Source: a virus. From it: 35,607 bases of DNA. This document shows positions 1-15,947 of this stretch, piece after piece (the stretch's first letter is position 1; each line of letters starts with the position of its first letter). The notes beneath the pieces are model-generated. The model searched no databases, was not told the origin of the DNA, and saw only the letters and a list, made by a program, of their open reading frames with translations. The stretch lies in UHGV virus genome UHGV-0212823; one strand, 5' to 3'. The position numbers and the translations under genes were made by a program.

Positions 1-122
1 GATTCAGTGCTGTCACGTTCCGCCCACTTCTTTTCCCAGCCGCGGTTACTCCAGGCATTTCCGCCGATGAATGCGACGGCCACCAGCAGCAAAATGGCAA
101 TAAACTGATAGCGCAGGCTCAC
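1..122 (-). CDS. Rz-like i-spanin, N-terminal part only (runs off window edge)
   Basis: GTG at 122-120 overlaps lysozyme stop; open frame to position 1 encodes VSLRYQFIAILLLVAVAFIGG..., a hydrophobic N-terminal anchor as expected for Rz placed after the endolysin. Confidence 0.45.
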   Translation of the reverse strand, partial: MSLRYQFIAILLLVAVAFIGGNAWSNRGWEKKWAERDSTE

Positions 123-658
123 TGGTCTATCCCCCAGCACGTCAGCGCGCTTTCCTGGTCTCGTCGTTCTACCTGACCATAGCACCCATTTTTCTGGCCT
201 TTGGTCAGGCGACAATCGCGGCCGCCGTCTTTAATCCACCAGCGGATCGCTTCACAGGCACCTCTACGGTCGCCAGCATTAATTCGCTTATAGAACGTAG
301 ACGGGAAGCATTTTCCGGGACCGATGTTATATGGGCAAAAAGAAGCGATACCCGCTTTCTGTGGTTCGGTCAGTGGTACTTTGATATTTCGGTCAACCCA
401 TGCCAGTGCTTTATCGCGTTCTATGGCGTTCACCTGGGCGCATTTCTCAGCAGACAGCTTCATTCCCTGAACTACTGGATTACCATCAACCATCGTGGCG
501 CCACGGCAAATGGTCCACACTCCGCCACCGTCACGATACGCCGTCAGGCTGTTACCCTCTTTTTCATCAAGAAACTGGTCGAGAATTACTGACGCAGGCG
601 CGCCGGCAAGCACTAGCCCAAGAACGGCAGCGCTTAATTTTGTTTTTTTCGAGGGCAT
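119..658 (-). CDS. phage lysozyme (T4-lysozyme/GH24 family), probable SAR endolysin
   Basis: 179 aa; weakly hydrophobic Gly/Ala-rich N-terminus (LSAAVLGLVLAGAPASVIL) followed by EGNSLTAYRDGGGVWTICRG catalytic region resembling phage 21-type R lysozymes; follows holin. Confidence 0.85.
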   Translation of the reverse strand: MPSKKTKLSAAVLGLVLAGAPASVILDQFLDEKEGNSLTAYRDGGGVWTICRGATMVDGNPVVQGMKLSAEKCAQVNAIERDKALAWVDRNIKVPLTEPQKAGIASFCPYNIGPGKCFPSTFYKRINAGDRRGACEAIRWWIKDGGRDCRLTKGQKNGCYGQVERRDQESALTCWGIDQ

Positions 659-660
659 AG

Positions 661-975
661 TTACTCTGCTCCCTCACCAGAGATACGTTTCATTGCCTCT
701 GTCACGACCTCAGCCGCCGCTGGGCGATCACGACTTGGTTTAACGGCCACATCAGCAAGGTACTTAGCCAATAACTGCGTTCTTTTTTTCTCTTCATCAA
801 GCCGTTCGCGTTCTTCTTTCCGCTTCGCGTAGTAGGTCTTAATGGTGAAATAAGCCGAGATCAGAGCGCCAAGGATAAATACATAATCTTGCAAACTCAG
901 AACAGAAAAGAAACCAAGCAGCCCTGACCACCAGTACGGCATGTTATGTCCATCGGTTGGGTTCATACGTTGCAT
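661..975 (-). CDS. putative holin (pinholin-like), 104 aa
   Basis: Two hydrophobic segments (YWWSGLLGFFSVLSL, YVFILGALISAYFTI) and charged C-terminus; RBS GGAGGTG upstream; stop 2 nt before lysozyme start. Confidence 0.55.
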   Translation of the reverse strand: MQRMNPTDGHNMPYWWSGLLGFFSVLSLQDYVFILGALISAYFTIKTYYAKRKEERERLDEEKKRTQLLAKYLADVAVKPSRDRPAAAEVVTEAMKRISGEGAE

Positions 976-1318
976 ATCCGCACCTCCGTGATCGGGGCAC
1001 TGTGTGTGATTAAAGGGTCAGGCTTCACGGGCTGGATTTATCAACAAAGCACGTAGTGAGTGATACCCGTGAGCCTGAATACGAAAAAGGCCACGCAAAT
1101 GCGCAGCCTTTATATCGAGAGTTTTATTATTCGAAGGCACTCCATCCAACAAACCACCCACGGTTATCAGGATTTTAACGGAGTGCTTTTGGATGAGCGC
1201 TGAACCCAAAGGTCAGTATTTTTACACAGCAATTTTGCAAAAAGCAGCGCCCATTCAAAACAAGGTCGCTTTCCAGTCACTCCGGGGACCCCATCATCGC
1301 AGACTGGAAAACGTTTAC

Positions 1319-1393
<75 letters not shown>

Positions 1394-1394
1394 A

Positions 1395-1471
1395 TGGTCC
1401 GCCACCGAGGGCTCGAACCTCGCACCGTCAACTTAGAAGGTTGATGCTCTATCCCGATGAGCTAGTGGCGG
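1395..1471 (-). tRNA. tRNA-Arg (anticodon UCU), 77 nt
   Basis: Acceptor CCGCCAC/GTGGCGG, anticodon stem TCAAC/GTTGA with loop CTTCTAA, T-loop TTCGAGC, CCA encoded. Confidence 0.8.
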
Positions 1472-1472
1472 C

Positions 1473-1549
1473 TGGTGGCCCTTGCTGGACTTGAACCAGC
1501 GACCGGGCGATTATGAGTCGCACGCTCTGACCAACTGAGCTAAAGGGCC
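1473..1549 (-). tRNA. tRNA with anticodon CAU (Ile2/lysidine-type or Met), 77 nt
   Basis: GGCCCTT acceptor, anticodon loop CTCATAA, T-loop TTCAAGT, CCA encoded; resembles enterobacterial ileX-type tRNA from memory. Confidence 0.8.
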
Positions 1550-1670
1550 GGGAACGAGATAGTACATAAGCAAAACTAACCATGCAAACTAAACGGTTCC
1601 AGTGGTTGCGGATGATCCTGTCTGATATTGTTAAATCGCCAAAAGTAACCACATCAGACAAGGAGATGTT

Positions 1671-2126
1671 ATGTCCGAGTACCATAGCTTGCTTCACGTC
1701 ATCAGATCACGTGTATGTGAAAACAGAAATATGTCTCACTCCGCTTATTATCAGGGAAGCCTGCAGGACAATCAGATCAGAAACAGAACGGCGCTTATAT
1801 TCACCCTTGAAATGATACTTCACCAGCACAGAATAAAGTATGGAACCATTTTCAATCCGCTCGAGGGAAAAGATGCGCTCTATCATCTAATATTTATCAA
1901 AACACACTGGTTACTATCCGATATCAGAAACCTCACCCTCGAAGATGCCTTGTTCGTCATACAAGAGGATCTGAGAATGGATAATCTTTCCAATGATGCG
2001 CAAGATGCTCTGAAAAACTTTAATCTACCTTCTGTGGCTTTTCAATTTGAGGATTTTCCAGAAGCGGATTGGAACTATAAGGAAAACTCAACATTCCTAC
2101 GAAGCCTGACGTTGAAAGCAGGCTAA
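1671..2126 (+). CDS. hypothetical protein, 151 aa (AT-rich moron on the opposite strand to the late genes)
   Basis: Strong RBS AAGGAG 6 nt upstream of ATG; AT-rich composition; weak hairpin plus T-tract after the stop (about 2146-2175). Confidence 0.5.
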   Translation: MSEYHSLLHVIRSRVCENRNMSHSAYYQGSLQDNQIRNRTALIFTLEMILHQHRIKYGTIFNPLEGKDALYHLIFIKTHWLLSDIRNLTLEDALFVIQEDLRMDNLSNDAQDALKNFNLPSVAFQFEDFPEADWNYKENSTFLRSLTLKAG

Positions 2127-2289
2127 TAGACGCGTTTATTTCCCCAAGTCGCTCTACAAGAGCGGCTTTTTCTTTTACCAGGCGGTTGTAATGGGTGAGG
2201 TGAAGTTTTTGCTGTCCAAGCCAGTCCTCAAGTTGGTCTGACGTCATGCCAGGATTAAAAAAATAAGGTAGCTGCTTTTCGTCTTGCAT
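2020..2289 (-). CDS. hypothetical protein, 89 aa (start trimmed to MQDEKQ...)
   Basis: RBS GGAGGT 6 nt upstream of ATG at 2289, directly after a terminator hairpin; C-terminal ~35 codons overlap the 3' end of the plus-strand ORF. Confidence 0.4.
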   Translation of the reverse strand: MQDEKQLPYFFNPGMTSDQLEDWLGQQKLHLTHYNRLVKEKAALVERLGEINASISLLSTSGFVGMLSFPYSSNPLLENPQIEKPQKVD

Positions 2290-2302
2290 TATTGACCTCC
2301 AG

Positions 2303-2331
2303 AAAAGCAAAAACCCCGCCAGATGGCAGGG
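2303..2331 (-). terminator. rho-independent terminator (second terminator in the late leader)
   Basis: Minus-strand RNA hairpin CCCTGCC-ATCT-GGCGGGG followed by UUUUUGCUUUU. Confidence 0.5.
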
Positions 2332-2367
2332 CTTCGATTATTAAGCTGTGTGTCGAAGTGACACTCA

Positions 2368-3057
2368 TTACGCTGCCAAACTGTGTTGTTCTTCAATCAG
2401 CGGCTGGCGATGGTTGCGATCAAATACACCTTTTAGCGCCTCTTTGCGTTGTTCGAAGTCCCAGCCCATGCCAATAAATACTGTATTGGCCCGCTGTAAC
2501 TCAGTGACGCAATGGATCTGCTCCGCCGTCAGGTAATCACGAATGCTCTCTTTTTTGTCGATGTCGTGGTAAACACGAAATTTTGCCGCCGTCATACCGA
2601 GCGCGATGCGGTTAATCAAATCCGCTTCGTTGCTAAAATGGTAAGGCTTAATCTCCTTACCCAGAGTTTCGCGCTCATGCTTGATGGCATCGCTCATCGG
2701 ACGATACTCCAGACGTGCGGTGTTACGATCCATTTTTTTGCTCGCCAGAGCGCCACGCATGCGGAAGAACTCAGCAACCAGTTTCTTTTTGAACTTACGG
2801 ACAACATCGTTATTACGCATGTAGGTGATAAGCAGAGTGGTTTGCTGTTCGTTCAGTAGCGCCACTCGACGCTTTTGAGGACCACCGTCAGTTTGAATGG
2901 TTCGGATTTCAAATCCGACCCTTCCGAATTCTTCAAGATCAGCCTTGTTACGGTCTACCAGCTTAATAACGGTGTCATGATCACGCCCAACCCCATCAGC
3001 AATAGCGACAGTGCTGGTTACAAGGTCGAGTTTTTTAATTTCAACTAATTGCATGGC
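2368..3057 (-). CDS. Rha-family phage regulatory protein (start trimmed to MQLVEIKK...)
   Basis: N-terminal MQLVEIKKLDLVTSTVAIADGVGRDHDTVIKLVDRN resembles the Rha/pRha domain; RBS TAAGG upstream. Confidence 0.55.
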   Translation of the reverse strand, partial: AMQLVEIKKLDLVTSTVAIADGVGRDHDTVIKLVDRNKADLEEFGRVGFEIRTIQTDGGPQKRRVALLNEQQTTLLITYMRNNDVVRKFKKKLVAEFFRMRGALASKKMDRNTARLEYRPMSDAIKHERETLGKEIKPYHFSNEADLINRIALGMTAAKFRVYHDIDKKESIRDYLTAEQIHCVTELQRANTVFIGMGWDFEQRKEALKGVFDRNHRQPLIEEQHSLAA

Positions 3058-3203
3058 GTTTACCTTACTTTGAGATGAACCTTTGCCGCACAGGAAACCA
3101 GCCCACCGAGGCTCGCCAGCACTAACTGACTTCCTCAAAGGCTCATTTCAAAGGGTGTGGTTCGGTGTGATATGTGCGCGGGCGGTGCGCAGGAAATGCG
3201 GAT

Positions 3204-3229
3204 ACAAAAAAACCCGCTCAGAGGCGGGT
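3204..3229 (-). terminator. tR'-like rho-independent terminator
   Basis: Minus-strand hairpin ACCCGCC-TCTGA-GCGGGU followed by U7; about 40-60 nt downstream of the promoter below. Confidence 0.65.
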
Positions 3230-3273
3230 GATTTGGAGTTAATTTGCTACAGGCGAGATACTCCATAATCAGA

Positions 3274-3303
3274 AGCATACAGGACACTTTTATGCAAAGT
3301 CAA
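3274..3303 (-). promoter_or_regulatory. pR'-like late promoter (sigma70)
   Basis: Minus strand -35 TTGACT (3303-3298) and -10 TATGCT (3279-3274) with 18-bp spacer, immediately downstream of the Q gene. Confidence 0.55.
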
Positions 3304-3344
3304 CACCAACGCGCAAAAAAGAGTCGCTATTTGCTCCGATCGCA

Positions 3345-4160
3345 TCAATAAGTTGTTGCTTTCTCAAATTCTGATGATGCATGACGCTCTCCTTTGTGCA
3401 GCACATCAATCAGCATTTCATAGAATGGCTTCCAGTTACGAGACCATGAGGACTGATGGAGATCCGGCAGACGTTTAAGGATAGCCCGGTGAACGGTCGC
3501 AGATGACACTCTGGAATACCCCTCGCCGCTGCAACGCTCACATGTTTTGAAAACCGGTGCGCCGCAGTCTTTTGTCGCGATGCGGTCCAGTACCTCGCCC
3601 TTTCCGCCACAACGGCAGCGGGCGCTGATTGTTCCCTTGCCTTCGCAACTATCACAGACGGCTGGAACAATCTCTGTAACCTCTGTCCACAACTCCCAGT
3701 CTGACGGACGAACGGCGCGCGAACGGCTGGCCCAGTAAGGCGCTTTACCCCACGGATAAGTTACTTTACGCGTGGTCTGTGTGCGGGATGTTCTCCCGCT
3801 ACCGCTACAACTGTGGCACGTCACGCTGGTGGCCGCCGAACGGGAGTATTCAGCAAAGGCAAATTGCGCCAGCATCAGCATGCACCATCCCAGCTCACCA
3901 CCGGCTGCTTTGCGCACGTTCTTTGGTGCAGTCTCCATCGCATGGCGTGCCAGCGCCTGTACAGCGAGTTGCTCATCGCTTTCGCTGATCCCGGTCTTAC
4001 CGAAGAAAGCAGCCAGGCCGAACCGCGCGCGGCTGCTGGTCGTACCGATGGCTACCATAACATCGGTCCCGGTAATCCGATCGGGAGAAGTATCTTTCAC
4101 GCTGTCGCTGATATGCATCCCCTGAGGGCTAAAATGTTTAAGAACAGACTCAAGCTTCAC
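3345..4160 (-). CDS. late antitermination protein Q (phage 82/Qin-like family)
   Basis: 271 aa from GTG with RBS GAGGAAA (alternative ATG at 4118); four CxxCxGxG zinc-finger motifs; sits directly upstream of the promoter/terminator pair. Confidence 0.6.
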   Translation of the reverse strand: MKLESVLKHFSPQGMHISDSVKDTSPDRITGTDVMVAIGTTSSRARFGLAAFFGKTGISESDEQLAVQALARHAMETAPKNVRKAAGGELGWCMLMLAQFAFAEYSRSAATSVTCHSCSGSGRTSRTQTTRKVTYPWGKAPYWASRSRAVRPSDWELWTEVTEIVPAVCDSCEGKGTISARCRCGGKGEVLDRIATKDCGAPVFKTCERCSGEGYSRVSSATVHRAILKRLPDLHQSSWSRNWKPFYEMLIDVLHKGERHASSEFEKATTY

Positions 4161-4244
4161 AATAATTTCCTCTGGCGACGGGATGTTTTTATTATCTCAT
4201 TTATTGCAACATACATCCATTTTGATGCAATAAATGAAATACAA

Positions 4245-5168
4245 TCAATCACCCTGATGAGAGCCAATCAGGTTCAGATAAACACCATCCTGACGTCTAC
4301 CCATATCTGCAAAGTTCTCACTCTCCAGATACCATTTGAGTACATTCAACGCCTCCTCACGACTGATCGGCCTGATGGTTTCCAGTTGCTTTTCCAGCCA
4401 GTTTTCCCTGTGCCAGATATGCGAACTCTCCCAGGCGTACTCGTTGGGATGCAGCTCCTTGTATGCTGCCACTCGCATCTGAGACAACCAGTCCCAGTAC
4501 TGGTATTCCCTGACGACGTCGCTGAGGGTATAGGGTGCCGGAAGCACGTCTGTATAGATAAACTCTCCGTCTCCCTCCTGCGTGTAATCACAGTAAATCT
4601 CCTGGTAAGGCCCGTACCTGGACTCAATGAGGCACTCAGCCGGAACAGGATCAAAAACAGCCTCATGGCTGCCAAAAGCACCACGAACATTCTCAGCCTT
4701 CTCCCGCTGTGATCTTGCATTACTGATGAAGTGCTGTGGGTTATCGAGCCACATTGTCGAAAATACGGAAGTCCAGCCCGCGCCGTTCTGCTGCAGGTAT
4801 CGCGTATACCGTTCCTGTGCCTCTTTCGGCGTGATTGTCAGTTTTCCCAGCGCAGCTTCCGCTGCGGCAATATGGACAGGCTCGCCGGTTTTGATAACCT
4901 CCAGCACCCACAGGTACGCATCCGTCTGTTTATGTCCTGTGATAACCCGTTGCAGTGGCAAAGGTTTAATTGTCGCCAGTTCCGTGCTGTATTTCGGTTC
5001 AGGGATGGTGAAAAGCTCCTGGTGCTCAGGATTGTCGCGAAATAACCCGGAGCGACGACAGAGGCTTTTCACCGTATTTAGATTGATGCCAGTTTCACGT
5101 GAGATGGATTTATACCCTCTGCCGCTGCGTTTTAGGCTGAGGATTTGCTCTTTAATATCGTTGTTCAT
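4245..5168 (-). CDS. helix-turn-helix domain protein of unknown function, 308 aa
   Basis: N-terminal MNNDIKEQILSLKRSGRGYKSISRETGINLNTVKSLC looks like an HTH; alternative upstream start at 5228 overlapping the ssb 3' end. Confidence 0.5.
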   Translation of the reverse strand: MNNDIKEQILSLKRSGRGYKSISRETGINLNTVKSLCRRSGLFRDNPEHQELFTIPEPKYSTELATIKPLPLQRVITGHKQTDAYLWVLEVIKTGEPVHIAAAEAALGKLTITPKEAQERYTRYLQQNGAGWTSVFSTMWLDNPQHFISNARSQREKAENVRGAFGSHEAVFDPVPAECLIESRYGPYQEIYCDYTQEGDGEFIYTDVLPAPYTLSDVVREYQYWDWLSQMRVAAYKELHPNEYAWESSHIWHRENWLEKQLETIRPISREEALNVLKWYLESENFADMGRRQDGVYLNLIGSHQGD

Positions 5169-5211: not shown

Positions 5212-5604
5212 TCAGAAAGGTACGTCATCCGCAAAGTCTTCACCCAGCACAGGTTGCCCGCCAGTGTTTTTCTTCCGGCCCCCCGGGCGCACGGTTTTCG
5301 CACTAATCACAGAATCAGCCACCACCTGATACCCCGTCTGCAGGACGCCATTATTCCCCTTCCACTGGCTGGCCTGCATAGTGCCAGACACGCTGATCAG
5401 ATCGCCTTTCTGGTGTTTCAGCAGATAGTCCGCTTGTTTTCCGAACGCCGTCACCGCCAGCCAGAATGTCAGTTCGCCACTCTCGGCATCCCGGCAGGGA
5501 AGTGCAACAGCCAGCCGGGTATATGCCATGTTGTTGCCGTTGCTGATGGCCTTGCTCTGCACGTCGACCACCAGTCGGCCATGTGCTGCAATATGAGCTG
5601 TCAT
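5212..5604 (-). CDS. ssb: single-stranded DNA-binding protein (phage-type short SSB)
   Basis: OB-fold-like core and acidic C-terminal tip GEDFADDVPF (compare the DDDIPF tail of bacterial SSB); ATGA overlap with the upstream gene. Confidence 0.75.
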   Translation of the reverse strand: MTAHIAAHGRLVVDVQSKAISNGNNMAYTRLAVALPCRDAESGELTFWLAVTAFGKQADYLLKHQKGDLISVSGTMQASQWKGNNGVLQTGYQVVADSVISAKTVRPGGRKKNTGGQPVLGEDFADDVPF

Positions 5605-7733
5605 TTCGTTATCTCCTCACCTTCGTCAAGCTGAACCAGTAAATAAGAACGCACACGGATGTTGCCCAGGTGCCTGAGTCGCGGCGTCAGCGTCTGGTAA
5701 CCTTTATCGCTCGGCGACTTCTTCAGTATTCCGGCCTCACATAAAGTGCGGGCAAACTGGCCGCTGTCGAATCCCTTCGCCACCTCAGACTTGAATACGC
5801 CGGGCAACACATAGAACAGCAGCGGATCGTCCACGTGATTACCCTTATTCCGGTACCCCGCCAGCTCACTGATTGGCAGGCTTTGCTCGTCATAGGGTAA
5901 AGGGGCGAACCGTCGCATACCGAACGTGCTCAGGAACTGCACCGCCTGCTCTATGATCTGCTCGATTTCTTTGTTGCCGGTACCGAACACACCAATCCAG
6001 GCGTTATAGCTGTGCTGCAGGGCATCACGACAGCTCTGCTCATCCCAGCCGGTAATTACCCTGCCCAGCAACAGGGCAGCTTCCAGAATGGCAAACCGCG
6101 AACCAACACGGTGAACCTGCTCACCATAATCTGCCGGGATAAGATTCCGCCATCGCTCCTCTGCCGAACGTACCGCAGCGACGGCTTCATTGCGATGCTC
6201 AGCAAGCCAGCGGATCCATTCCCGCCCGGCTACGCCATGATTATTCTGATACGCGTCTTTCAGAGCGTCGGCATGCTGCTTGCCGTTTTCGTAATCATGG
6301 AACCGTACCGCCCTGCTCATTGGAATATTCAGTAGGCGTACCAGTTGCCCGGCTTTGGCCTTACGCCCGGCACCGGCTACAAATGTCTCCATATCCACTT
6401 CACCGGTACTGATCGCAACGGTCCGCCAGCGCTTCAGTTCCCGGTTACCACCTTCTTTGGCACCCTGCAGCTTCCCGGTGCCGTTGAACAGTGCGTAGGC
6501 GGACTTCCACACCTCTACGGGGTCAGCACCCTGCCCGATCTCGTCCAGCGGCATCAGCGCATCATTGTGTGCCGCCGCCTCGTTCGCCAGCCCCAGCGCT
6601 GTCCCGTACCAGGTCAGCCGCAACATATCGGGGTTGCCATACAGGCTGGAGGCCACGTTTGCTGTAGTTGTTTTCCCGGCACTTGATTGCTCGTAAAAGT
6701 GAATACCGAAACCATCAGCCCCTGTCAGTCCAATAAGAGGTGCCGCCAGCGCTGCCGCCATAGCGGTCATCATGGAGTAATTGCCACTGGCAAGGCGTGC
6801 CACGCTGTTACGCCAGCTTGCAGTATCTCCCTTCATTGTGTAACCCGCGGCAGCAGAACTACGTCCATTGAAGAGCACCGGGTGTTCAGGTTTTCCGATA
6901 ATTTCACCATCCGGCATAATGTAGGCACCACATTGCCAGCCAGTGGCATGAGCGACGCGCCAGAGTTGTCCGCTGCCGCTTCTCTGCATCCAGTCGGCCA
7001 GGGTTGCCCGCAGGTTACTTTTTGTGGTGACGTTTACCCCTCCGCCCTTCAGTGTGCGCCAGCCCTCCCTCTCGCCAATATCAGCCTGAGGAATGGCTCG
7101 GATAAGCGGCATGTCTTCACCTTCAGGCTGCCAGCGCAGGATCAGATAACGGTCCTTGCCATCAGAACCGATGCTCATAACGTCCAGCGGGGAGCATAGC
7201 CAGCTCTCATTGAGAGTCACTCCACCACTTTCCTTGTCCACTTTTGGTGTTATCCAGTACACCCCGTCGTCACGGCTTTCAATCCGGGGTTTCAGATCAT
7301 CATCGGTCACGGCCTGATGTTTTTTCCCTTTGACAGGCAGAGAGAGCACCACGCTATTTCCCTCCTCAGCATCTGCCTTTAGTGAAGGTAGTCGCGCCGT
7401 CCAGTCCTCCAGCACCTCCTGGCTTTCGGAATAAAAACGGGCCTCCTGCACACCGGCAAGGGCAAGCTTCGTGGCTATAAGGCTGAGGTGCTTTTCGGAT
7501 ATTTCCCCGGCCCGGTAGACCCGGACATAGCGCCGCTCGGCATCAACGATGTTCAGATTGTGCAGTTCATCGAGCTGCTTTTTACCGAGATAAACCGGCG
7601 GGATCGTGTCGCCGATTGTATTGTGGCGCTGCCAGTCCTCAGCGAAGGTCCATGCCTTTTCCCCGGCAAAGATAATTGCCTCGGTAAACGGATCTGGCGG
7701 CAGTTTGTTCAGGTTCGGTGCGTTTTTCATCAT
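5601..7733 (-). CDS. P-loop NTPase, putative replicative primase/helicase (DUF927-like, P4 alpha-like role); start trimmed to MMKNAPN
   Basis: 710 aa; Walker A motif SSAGKTT; same operon as CHC2 zinc-finger protein and SSB; RBS GAGAGG upstream. Confidence 0.6.
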   Translation of the reverse strand: MMKNAPNLNKLPPDPFTEAIIFAGEKAWTFAEDWQRHNTIGDTIPPVYLGKKQLDELHNLNIVDAERRYVRVYRAGEISEKHLSLIATKLALAGVQEARFYSESQEVLEDWTARLPSLKADAEEGNSVVLSLPVKGKKHQAVTDDDLKPRIESRDDGVYWITPKVDKESGGVTLNESWLCSPLDVMSIGSDGKDRYLILRWQPEGEDMPLIRAIPQADIGEREGWRTLKGGGVNVTTKSNLRATLADWMQRSGSGQLWRVAHATGWQCGAYIMPDGEIIGKPEHPVLFNGRSSAAAGYTMKGDTASWRNSVARLASGNYSMMTAMAAALAAPLIGLTGADGFGIHFYEQSSAGKTTTANVASSLYGNPDMLRLTWYGTALGLANEAAAHNDALMPLDEIGQGADPVEVWKSAYALFNGTGKLQGAKEGGNRELKRWRTVAISTGEVDMETFVAGAGRKAKAGQLVRLLNIPMSRAVRFHDYENGKQHADALKDAYQNNHGVAGREWIRWLAEHRNEAVAAVRSAEERWRNLIPADYGEQVHRVGSRFAILEAALLLGRVITGWDEQSCRDALQHSYNAWIGVFGTGNKEIEQIIEQAVQFLSTFGMRRFAPLPYDEQSLPISELAGYRNKGNHVDDPLLFYVLPGVFKSEVAKGFDSGQFARTLCEAGILKKSPSDKGYQTLTPRLRHLGNIRVRSYLLVQLDEGEEITK

Positions 7734-7740
7734 CTGCCTC

Positions 7741-8397
7741 TCAGTGAGCCACTGGCGTTGCCGGAATGCCTTCCGTTTTGAGCGCTTCAATAAAGCTGTC
7801 GTGAAGAAGCGCCATACCGTGCAGTCCCTGCTCTGACATGCGAAGCCCCGTCCTTTCCGGGTCCTTCTCAACCATGGTCCGGTAAATCATGGTGGCCATG
7901 ATGGGTGCCTGATCGGCTGGGTACACCTCGTAAGCCAGACCTTCAATGTGGTTTGCCAGCGCAAAACGCTCTGAGCCCGGGTAAACCACGATGCCCCCAT
8001 ACTCCCCGCAGTACACCGCTGCCAGCACGGGTTCGCCGTGCTCATCTGGCACCTTCACCAATCCGTGAAGGTCTTCCATCTCGCCAATGAATACGGCTGC
8101 GACCACCCAGCGCCAGAGAATGAGGCTCTGCTCAGCGGACAACTCAAAGCACTTCTCGCCGCCCCCCGTCCACAGCGCGGCGACCAGCCGCATGCCAGAC
8201 GGAAGATCGTCGTCATATACCCCGCTATCAAGCTCATGAATAACGGCATCTGGGCTTTCCGTTTTTATCGCCTCTTCGTTATCGTCAGCATTCTGGCAAA
8301 AATAAACAATGGAGTTTCCTTTAACTTCTGCGCGGTTTATTTTTATATGCTGATTGGTTGTCTTTTCTGCCACCATCTTATTTTCCGAATCACGCAT
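7741..8397 (-). CDS. hypothetical protein, 218 aa
   Basis: RBS GGAG 8 nt upstream of ATG at 8397; overlaps upstream gene end by 8 nt (translational coupling). Confidence 0.5.
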   Translation of the reverse strand: MRDSENKMVAEKTTNQHIKINRAEVKGNSIVYFCQNADDNEEAIKTESPDAVIHELDSGVYDDDLPSGMRLVAALWTGGGEKCFELSAEQSLILWRWVVAAVFIGEMEDLHGLVKVPDEHGEPVLAAVYCGEYGGIVVYPGSERFALANHIEGLAYEVYPADQAPIMATMIYRTMVEKDPERTGLRMSEQGLHGMALLHDSFIEALKTEGIPATPVAH

Positions 8398-14759: not shown

Positions 14760-15947
14760 TTATCCAGCAGCCTTACCCGCCAGTTCATCCAGATAGTCAG
14801 CGTACCACTGGAGCATCTCCCGTCTCCCATCGAGGTACTGAGCATGGTTGTAAGTACCACGGATAGTATTCCTGTCAGCGTGCGCCAGTTGAGTTTCTAT
14901 CCATGCAGAATCAAATCCTTTCTCATGCAATACGGTGCTCATCGTGTGTCTGAAACCATGGCCAGTAGCCTTTCCGCCATAGCCTATACGTTTAATCACC
15001 TGGTTAATGCTGGCCTCGCTCATTGGTTTATGTGCATCGTTGCGACCGGGGAAGACATACTTACCCCAGCCGGTGATCTCTTTTAGCTCCAGCAGATGAG
15101 ATTTAACCTGTCTAGAAAGTGGTACAAGGTGAGGACGGCGCATCTTCATGCGTTCCTTAGGGATCTGCCACAAATCATTGTCCAGGTCGAATTCAGCCCA
15201 CTCTGAGGCGCGGAGTTCAATGGTCCTGACACTGGTGTACATAAGCAGTAATGTCGCAATGCGTGTCACTTTACTACCACTATAAGCATTCACTGCGTGA
15301 ATAAATGGACCAAGTTCGGCGGGGAGTAGGTGTGGGAAGTGATTTTGCTTGGGTGATTTTAGTGCGCCAGCCAGATCGGTTACGGGGTTTACCTCTGCTC
15401 TGCCAGTAATTATCGCGTAAGTGAAAATCTGCCGACATGCCTGACGGGTTTTCTTGAGCTTATCCAGTACTCCTCGTTCTTCCATTTTGCGCAACACTGA
15501 CAGCATGTCCATCGGCTTGATTTCGGTAATGGCCTTCTTTCCGACATACGGGAATATATCCTTTCGTAGATATTCAAGAATGTCCTCAGCATACCCGGAA
15601 GACCAGTTCAACTTCTTATGCTCATGCCATTCAAGCGCCAAAAGCTCGAAGCTGTTATTAATTGCTAGATTCTTCGCTTCTCTGGCGGCTTGTTTAACTT
15701 CAGAGGGATCGTCACCTGCTGCAAGTACACGCTTGGCTTCCGTACGTTTGTCTCTGGCTTCAGCAAGCGTCACATCAGGATAAACGCCAATGGAAAGCAG
15801 CTTTTCTTTGCCTGAATAGCGGTACTTCATGCGCCAGTACCTGGAACCATTCGGGTTAACCAGCAGATACAAACCACCACCATCAGACAGCTTATATGGT
15901 TTATCTGTTGGCTTTGCAGTACTTATCTGGCGGGCTGTTAGCTTCAT
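14760..15947 (-). CDS. int: tyrosine site-specific integrase, P4/CP4-57 type
   Basis: 395 aa; N-terminal arm-binding-type domain (LSDGGGLYLLVNPNGSRYWRMKYRY) and C-terminal catalytic region with HGFRHT and Tyr-containing RGTYNHAQY motifs. Confidence 0.9.
   Translation of the reverse strand: MKLTARQISTAKPTDKPYKLSDGGGLYLLVNPNGSRYWRMKYRYSGKEKLLSIGVYPDVTLAEARDKRTEAKRVLAAGDDPSEVKQAAREAKNLAINNSFELLALEWHEHKKLNWSSGYAEDILEYLRKDIFPYVGKKAITEIKPMDMLSVLRKMEERGVLDKLKKTRQACRQIFTYAIITGRAEVNPVTDLAGALKSPKQNHFPHLLPAELGPFIHAVNAYSGSKVTRIATLLLMYTSVRTIELRASEWAEFDLDNDLWQIPKERMKMRRPHLVPLSRQVKSHLLELKEITGWGKYVFPGRNDAHKPMSEASINQVIKRIGYGGKATGHGFRHTMSTVLHEKGFDSAWIETQLAHADRNTIRGTYNHAQYLDGRREMLQWYADYLDELAGKAAG

Follow-up and report, generated by a model that had tools for sequence, protein, structure and literature searches.

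A probable lambda-type late switch with an inserted Rha-family gene cassette and a conserved leader RNA in virus genome UHGV-0212823

Introduction

The hexamer that follows the late promoter pR' of phage lambda is a sigma-dependent pause element where the antiterminator protein Q loads. Both the general scheme of Q loading at such a pause and the Q-lambda family (PF03589) have been described (PMC9388147). Here, we compare this and other described systems with a locus in virus genome UHGV-0212823, a stretch of 35,607 nucleotides (nt) that is called the window below. The Q gene, the promoter, the terminators, a Rha-family gene and a conserved leader RNA in front of that gene are all located on the - strand of the window. 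The locus is probably a lambda-type Q-dependent late switch that took up a mobile gene cassette. The switch itself is of a well-known kind (lambda-type Q/pR'/tR'), and the leader RNA is the less ordinary part.

With the lambda Q/pR'/6S RNA/tR' system the window shares the Q family, the -35 element TTGACT, a TTGMATAAAA block, a hexamer with GG at a distance of 27 nt, and the order of a terminator and then the lysis genes. It differs in that the Q protein is about 65 amino acids (aa) longer and carries extra CxxCxGxG motifs, in a promoter spacer of 18 instead of 17 nt, in a hexamer that begins 3 instead of 6 nt past the -10 element, and in a terminated RNA that is predicted to be about 60 nt long as compared to 194 nt in lambda. 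Furthermore, a gene cassette, tRNA genes and two further terminators precede the holin gene of the window. A second system for comparison is StxS, the short pR'-tR' transcript of Shiga-toxin (Stx) phages (PMC7547250). The likeness is that a constitutive late promoter would be terminated just downstream, which in the window is predicted to yield a short RNA with hairpin and U tail in lysogens; however, the window RNA has neither sequence similarity to StxS nor an Rfam match, and its 5' hairpin is not conserved in relatives.

Late-operon Rha genes were confirmed in P22-like phages and in ES18, where a terminator, a leader and a Rha-family gene stand together as in the window, and the window leader is about 85–88% identical to the ES18 and P22 copies. 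Their cassette lies after Rz, whereas the cassette of the window is situated directly behind pR' and before the lysis genes, with an upstream terminator that doubles as tR' and a second tR' past the gene. Leader RNAs that control antirepressor-type genes are c4/icd-ant of P1 and IsrK of Gifsy-1. In each case the 5' leader of a phage gene that is antirepressor-like or regulatory contains a structured RNA, but that of the window has no sequence or Rfam relationship to the other two and no antisense partner of it was identified. IsrK is also cited in the report on P22F, an 89-nt RNA in P22-infected Salmonella with 'no known function' (PMC13397905, Noncoding RNA, June 2026). In both cells and vesicles the 89-nt species of P22F is abundant; its ends are derived from read coverage only, the 3' end being placed 6 nt ahead of the rha start codon (PMC13397905).

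Late promoter, terminators and Rha gene

The Q antiterminator gene of the window (3345..4160, - strand) encodes a 271-aa Q-lambda family protein (PF03589 in Pfam, E 1e-51), which matches the lambda Q structures 7UBM and 4MO1 in the Protein Data Bank (PDB) with E 3e-38. For comparison, 80 loci with Q proteins 78–97% identical to the window Q were fetched, giving 62 distinct downstream sequences. The late promoter pR' is found at 3303..3274 (- strand), 41 nt past the Q stop codon, and consists of a -35 element TTGACT (3303..3298), an 18-nt spacer with TTGCATAAAA and a -10 element TATGCT (3279..3274). This architecture, with TTGACT or TTGATT, exactly 18 nt, TAnnnT, exactly 3 nt and the hexamer nAYYRT, is kept in 58 of the 62 distinct loci; the -10 element is TATGCT in 49 members of the set, and GG follows the hexamer in 50. 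When aligned with lambda pR', the -35 elements are the same and the TTGMATAAAA block is common to both spacers, the window spacer TTGCATAAAA aligning with lambda TTGAATAAAA; this stretch is a candidate Q binding element. A second promoter class, which lacks the TTGMATAAAA block, also occurs among the Q-family loci. In both phages the hexamer with GG starts 27 nt after the start of the block (GATTAT-GG in the window, AACGAT-GGG in lambda), and we infer for the conserved GATTAT+GG of the window (3270..3263, - strand) the role of a candidate sigma-dependent pause element. Transcription would be expected to start within 3269..3266.

In the Q protein, residues 1–124 and 179–263 align to overlapping parts of lambda Q, and there are four CxxCxGxG motifs with a weak match to the DnaJ zinc finger, which suggests a possible duplicated zinc-binding region inside the protein.

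The promoter is followed by terminator 1, the tR' of the incoming segment discussed below (3229..3206, - strand), with a stem at 3229..3212 and seven T residues at 3212..3206, of which T3212 closes the stem. Its fold z-score is -3.2. A hairpin with T run is found 52–65 nt past the -10 element in 51 of the 58 promoter-keeping loci, with 34 different hairpin sequences, and since the position is kept while the hairpin sequence changes, this is how a functional tR' would be expected to look. Terminator 2 (2335..2301, - strand) has its stem at 2335..2310 and a T-rich tail to about 2301; the GC stem 2331..2325/2320..2314 is followed by T5-GC-T4, and the fold z-score is -2.5. Terminator 3 is located between the tRNA genes and the holin gene (1111..1086, element to 1080, - strand; z-score -4.7, 0 of 200 shuffles). 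Between the first two lies the Rha-family gene of 228 aa (3054..2368, - strand; PF09669, E 2e-15; phrog_2657, E 4e-74), with a Phage_pRha domain above the Pfam cut-off at residues 13–100.

An earlier note on this DNA, made from the letters alone, had described much of this layout. The promoter that it placed at 3274-3303, directly past a Q-like gene, had the right coordinates and is of the architecture kept in the relatives, and the intrinsic terminators that it saw at 3204-3229 and, past the Rha gene, at 2303-2331 were both found again as hairpins, the former with its T run and conserved position. The classic pR'/tR' layout that it proposed agrees with the Q-lambda family protein, the lambda pR' alignment and the conserved terminator position. 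A Rha gene flanked by two terminators is indeed what is seen, and tRNAs and lysis genes do follow it downstream on the same strand. Other claims need amendment: for the Rha-family gene put at 2368-3057, family and stop are right and the start is not, the ATG being at 3054; late gene expression would need read-through of terminators as stated, but of three rather than two; and the placement of the Rha gene is unusual in a relative sense only, the cassette of leader and gene standing directly after Q in about 15% of 96 contexts and mostly after Rz/spanin genes. The 89-aa open reading frame (ORF) at 2289..2020, the ORF at 1671..2126 (+), terminator 3 and the folded leader were not in that note.

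Insertion of the cassette and origin of the double terminator

The origin of the two terminators can be traced by comparison with L006, a close relative of which the Q gene is 97% identical to that of the window. By blastn, window positions 4142..3262 correspond to L006 3019..3899 (97.2% identity) and positions 2331..1501 to L006 3929..4759 (98.2%), and the segment in between (3261..2332, - strand), 930 base pairs (bp) in the window versus 29 bp in L006, is not in L006. In this segment lie a variant form of the initial transcribed region and terminator 1, then the leader RNA with the Rha gene, and about 35 nt beyond that gene. A hairpin identical to terminator 2 is the only tR' of L006 past pR', with the 89-aa ORF at once after it, and in L026 and L074 a near-identical hairpin occupies the same place directly after pR'. 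Rha genes in other contexts (L144, ES18 and L199) have unrelated sequence on their 3' side and not terminator 2. The possibility that terminator 2 belongs to the Rha cassette is ruled out by the L006 comparison together with these unrelated 3' flanks. Judged from the alignments, terminator 2 is the predicted tR' of the backbone itself, displaced by the 930-bp insertion, so that the double terminator would be the scar of a cassette insertion and would imply no special design.

In L012, L013 and L039, cargo of other kinds stands behind the window-type short pR' leader with terminator 1. The point at which homology between contexts sets in is often inside the T tract of the terminator with GTATC, pointing to terminators as joints in recombination. 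Tandem terminators can be regarded as the trace that a swap of cassettes at the pR'/tR' junction has left, with terminator T tracts as joints in phage mosaicism, and in this way a regulator-type gene can come under Q control ahead of lysis. The exact arrangement of the window was found in three other public assemblies, and a related arrangement, with the same Rha N-terminal domain and another C-terminal part, in L060, L061 and L066. In these three (4108..4480) the Rha gene is mosaic, residues 1–107/111 being 98–99% identical to the window and the rest different.

The Rha protein of the window is 78% identical to those encoded by P22-like Salmonella phages, e.g. SPN9CC, and 47% identical to ES18 gp79. 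In phages of the SPN9CC type, rha sits between Rz and the small terminase gene. According to the annotation note of ES18 gp79, the original rha phenotype is interference with phage growth in hosts lacking IHF. A literature search on the original rha/IHF work and on late-operon leaders of Rha or KilA-N genes gave nothing useful in the library searched.

Structure of the leader RNA

The approximately 150 nt between terminator 1 and the ATG of the Rha gene contain no ORF of their own. They hold a conserved structured leader RNA of P22F type of about 140 nt (3193..3063, - strand), as indicated by covariation and by similarity to P22F. An Rfam search at E <= 1 returned the three tRNAs only, and nothing at 3303..3048. 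Two alignments were used, A2 with 76 distinct leader versions and A5 with 66 versions including other genera. With the 76 versions, RNAalifold finds three helices unaided. P1 (3190..3187/3179..3176) closes a loop that reads CCGCC here (3185..3181) and CCGCA in most versions. P2 (3153..3136/3085..3068) is an 18-bp helix, on which the 9-bp helix P3 (3134..3126/3101..3093) is stacked, across a single bulged base in the 5' strand and a bulge of 7 nt in the 3' strand. The positions of the bulge sequence UGCGG (3090..3086) are nearly invariant in A5. P2 ends 2–3 nt before the Shine-Dalgarno sequence AAGG (3066..3063).

Pair counts were made over the P1–P3 structure plus a pseudoknot between loop and bulge. 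Standard pairs fill 95.3% of the cells in A2 and 93.4% in A5, as compared to 29–46% and 38–46%, respectively, when the 3' partners are slid. The number of pairs changed on both sides is 6 in A2, a value reached by 4 of 500 shuffles, and 10 in A5, where shuffles gave 4.2 +/- 1.1 (0/500). When individual cells are counted, 51 are changed on both sides in A2 (shuffles 14.3 +/- 2.8; 0/500) and 41 in A5 (8.0 +/- 2.2; 0/500). One pair of P2 is found in the forms U-A, G-C and C-G, and the lower part of P2 is rebuilt as UUUAGG / CCUAAG in Xenorhabdus and Photorhabdus and as UUUUUA / UAAAAA in Serratia symbiotica. Swapping the lower-P2 strands between versions costs on average 2.8 kcal/mol (0 of 2000 permutations). 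That the fold is on the sense strand, i.e. in RNA rather than in a DNA cruciform, is seen from an invariant G.U pair and several alternations of G.U with A-U. The blocks CGAACC, the UGCGG bulge and an apical CUGRYG motif are single-stranded and invariant. Slipped pairings, of the repeats CCTTTG / CAAAG and of CGAACC with GGTTC, were considered by eye, but the G-C and C-G variants in P2 favour the register as drawn.

It was also considered that the leader is an N-terminal extension of the Rha protein, starting from a TTG at 3138. This was rejected, since in 43 of the 76 versions the frame opened by the upstream TTG does not run on into the real ATG, and the cargo genes differ; the leader is thus not coding. 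Public annotation often extends the Rha coding sequence into the leader, as in L004 (4097..4714) and P22 (NC_002371, 39508..39629). By eye, no convincing likeness to ops, boxA/boxB, put, hammerhead or LexA-box elements was seen.

Spread of the leader RNA and its relation to P22F

Of 5426 complete E. coli genomes, 841 (about 15%) contain DNA 84–86% identical to the stretch 3217..3048, and the leader is present in 75 phage records, among them those of P22, ES18, BTP1, HK544 and several Stx-converting phages. A pattern scan with one genome per species detected it in Enterobacter, Citrobacter, Kluyvera, Kosakonia, Yersinia, Pantoea, Brenneria, Cedecea and other genera, as well as in Serratia symbiotica, Xenorhabdus and Photorhabdus. 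The 63 distinct proteins encoded behind it include 32 of the Rha, 19 of the KilA-N and 9 of the HNH type, and single cases of P22_AR_N or T5orf172. On the upstream side, 56 of 96 ORFs match the Rz lysis-protein family and some 15 more belong to other spanin-type families; a Q protein stands upstream in 14 of the 96, from all three Q families. An intrinsic terminator is nearly always present 5' of the leader, and the leader always lies directly before a start codon, with a fixed spacing of the Shine-Dalgarno sequence. The leader is 84–94% identical while the cargo genes change, is found in Stx phages and in P22, and is not annotated anywhere. In the E. coli-type versions L198, L202 and L138, P1 (AUGCGU-ACCGCA-ACGCAU) is followed by 5–8 U residues, like a second terminator after the first.

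Window positions 3147..3064 are identical to P22F at 78 of 84 positions (93%). On the structure given above, P22F spans the upper part of P2 together with P3 and the apex, and in addition the 3' strand of lower P2 and the Shine-Dalgarno sequence. Its reported 5' end coincides with the A.C mismatch by which P2 is divided. When full texts were searched for the leader sequence, one paper came up (PMC13397905), in the text of which, as far as searchable, no leader structure, covariation, cargo range or taxonomic spread was found. The covariation-backed structure offers a testable model for the P22F RNA.

Expression of the cassette and function of the leader

In the course of events that we propose, polymerases starting at about 3269..3266 in the absence of Q would stop at terminator 1 and release an RNA of about 55–63 nt, a counterpart of lambda 6S RNA and of StxS. 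With Q loaded at the promoter-proximal pause, polymerase would pass terminators 1, 2 and 3, giving one late transcript with the Rha gene, the 89-aa ORF, the tRNAs and the lysis genes, so that Rha would be a late gene here. A consensus scan limited to sigma70 found no sigma70-like promoter at 3204..3055 (- strand), and Rha would therefore be transcribed only by Q-modified polymerases that have moved past terminator 1. On the transcript strand the leader would fold into P1 and a long interrupted P2–P3 helix ending 2–3 nt before the Shine-Dalgarno sequence. It would most likely act in cis on cargo translation or stability, and be trimmed to a stable RNA of about 90 nt, as P22F.

Several points weigh against this reading. 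The evidence for this phage is all computational. A consensus scan gave 6 promoter-like sites where 5.3 were expected and 7 terminator-like sites where 6.4 were expected, and because these counts are at chance level, the reality of the switch is decided by the comparison with relatives. The hexamer, which begins closer to the -10 element than in lambda, would overlap the expected start site, and with this 3-nt spacing the start site and pause position are not fixed by the sequence. The T tract of terminator 2 is interrupted. As for the leader, covariation in P3 is modest (swap test 269/2000), and the low sequence diversity means that relatedness inflates the shuffle tests and that independence is overstated. 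The pseudoknot of loop CCGCA with bulge UGCGG has few changes, with one position found as C-G, U-A and U.G; in the window, with loop CCGCC, only four of its five pairs remain, and it is put forward tentatively as a predicted element. An apical hairpin P4 proposed by RNAalifold was dropped, as it is broken in the Xenorhabdus versions and appeared invariant in the first set because the search pattern had fixed it. Finally, the Shine-Dalgarno sequence of the window has an unpaired probability of 0.28 versus 0.43 in shuffles and is not clearly more paired.

This last point also bears on mechanism. The Shine-Dalgarno sequence is almost fully paired in Xenorhabdus, Photorhabdus, Serratia symbiotica and some E. 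coli versions, but its occlusion was rejected as a general mechanism of the leader, being strong in some lineages only and weak in the window. Since occlusion is lineage-limited, we commit ourselves only to a leader that acts in cis and is processed. Among the hypotheses on the leader, we give about an even chance to an action in cis on translation or stability of the cargo, independent of the upstream context, with processing to an RNA of about 90 nt. A more far-reaching proposal, which we consider doubtful, is that the leader represents an undescribed class of cis-regulatory RNA that travels with antirepressor-type and homing-endonuclease cargo in lambdoid late operons across Enterobacterales. 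Such an RNA might gate expression by a switch, i.e. nuclease processing or a protein or RNA partner on the invariant single-stranded blocks, and may also yield a trans-acting small RNA. The leader structure also offers a handle on the control of genes of the Rha and KilA-N types, of which the part played in induction and in cross-talk between phages is poorly understood.

The abundance of P22F as a discrete 89-nt species in cells and vesicles (PMC13397905), together with the three invariant single-stranded blocks, could also mean that the main product of the leader is a trans-acting small RNA, cut from the late transcript and directed at host or phage targets. However, the constant position before a start codon with fixed Shine-Dalgarno spacing speaks against this, no target of it is known, Rfam has no matching family, and the published ends of P22F come from read coverage only. 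As the principal function, we regard a role in trans as rather unlikely. Somewhat less credit still is given to the view that Rha is an autonomous 'moron', expressed from its own promoter in the lysogen and insulated from the late operon by terminators 1 and 2. Although a gene bracketed by terminators is a typical moron layout and the cassette is transferred as one unit from one phage context to another, no sigma70-like promoter was found between terminator 1 and the ATG (the scan covered sigma70 only), the 150 nt upstream of the ATG are occupied by covarying helices, and terminator 2 stems from the backbone and not from the cassette.

It is improbable that the conserved 150 nt act as DNA instead of RNA, as a recombination 'boundary' or a protein operator. 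The stretch does mark module junctions, with homology often beginning in the T tract and GTATC, and differing cargo genes lie behind it. But compensatory changes preserve base pairing, the G.U pairs, invariant as well as variable, would turn into A.C on the opposite strand, and a discrete RNA of the leader sequence accumulates in P22 infection (PMC13397905); a role in recombination could exist alongside the RNA role. That the hairpins are chance matches and the late genes are driven by a promoter nearer the lysis genes is very improbable, because, even though the scan counts equal the shuffle expectation and two weak promoter-like sites exist (2364..2337 and 2045..2017, each with 9 of 12 consensus matches), the terminator position is kept in 51 of 58 relatives with compensatory changes in the hairpins, and fold z-scores range from -2.5 to -4.7. 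We thus retain the lambda-type switch with an inserted cassette as the probable arrangement. The first of the two weak sites, GTGTCA-16-AATAAT on the - strand, is located just upstream of terminator 2, and its scan score is at chance.

Downstream late region and other observations

In the backbone lineage, tR' is directly followed by the 89-aa ORF (2289..2020, - strand; phrog_3501, E 5e-41), which is 98% identical in L006. Its 3' end is overlapped by a convergent ORF of 151 aa (1671..2126, + strand; phrog_5286) with a terminator of its own at 2146..2168 (+), and this pair is kept in L006, L026, L054 and L074. Relative to the convergent ORF, the late transcript passing through it would be antisense. 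Further downstream on the - strand lie the genes for tRNA-Met(CAT), tRNA-Arg(TCT) and tRNA-Gly(TCC) at 1549..1319, which match in Rfam, and the late genes served by pR', which are those for the holin (975..661) and the endolysin (658..119; Phage_lysozyme in Pfam).

Judging from positions 5000 to 35607 (- strand), the window reads as a whole phage genome, with head and tail genes from 35.6k to 17k, an integrase-sized ORF at 15947..14760 and a primase-like ORF of 756 aa at 7871..5601, then Q and the lysis genes. The gene order resembles that of Escherichia phage CharmingMan.

A different leader of about 150 nt is found in L031, L033 and L050 (about 3940..4090), directly after tR' and before a TerB-like gene. 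Besides a small GC hairpin and a Shine-Dalgarno sequence, it has a long helix, GGGGTGAGCCA / TGGCTCACCC. This leader is not alignable with that of the window, although its build is similar, and it may represent a second family of cassette leaders.

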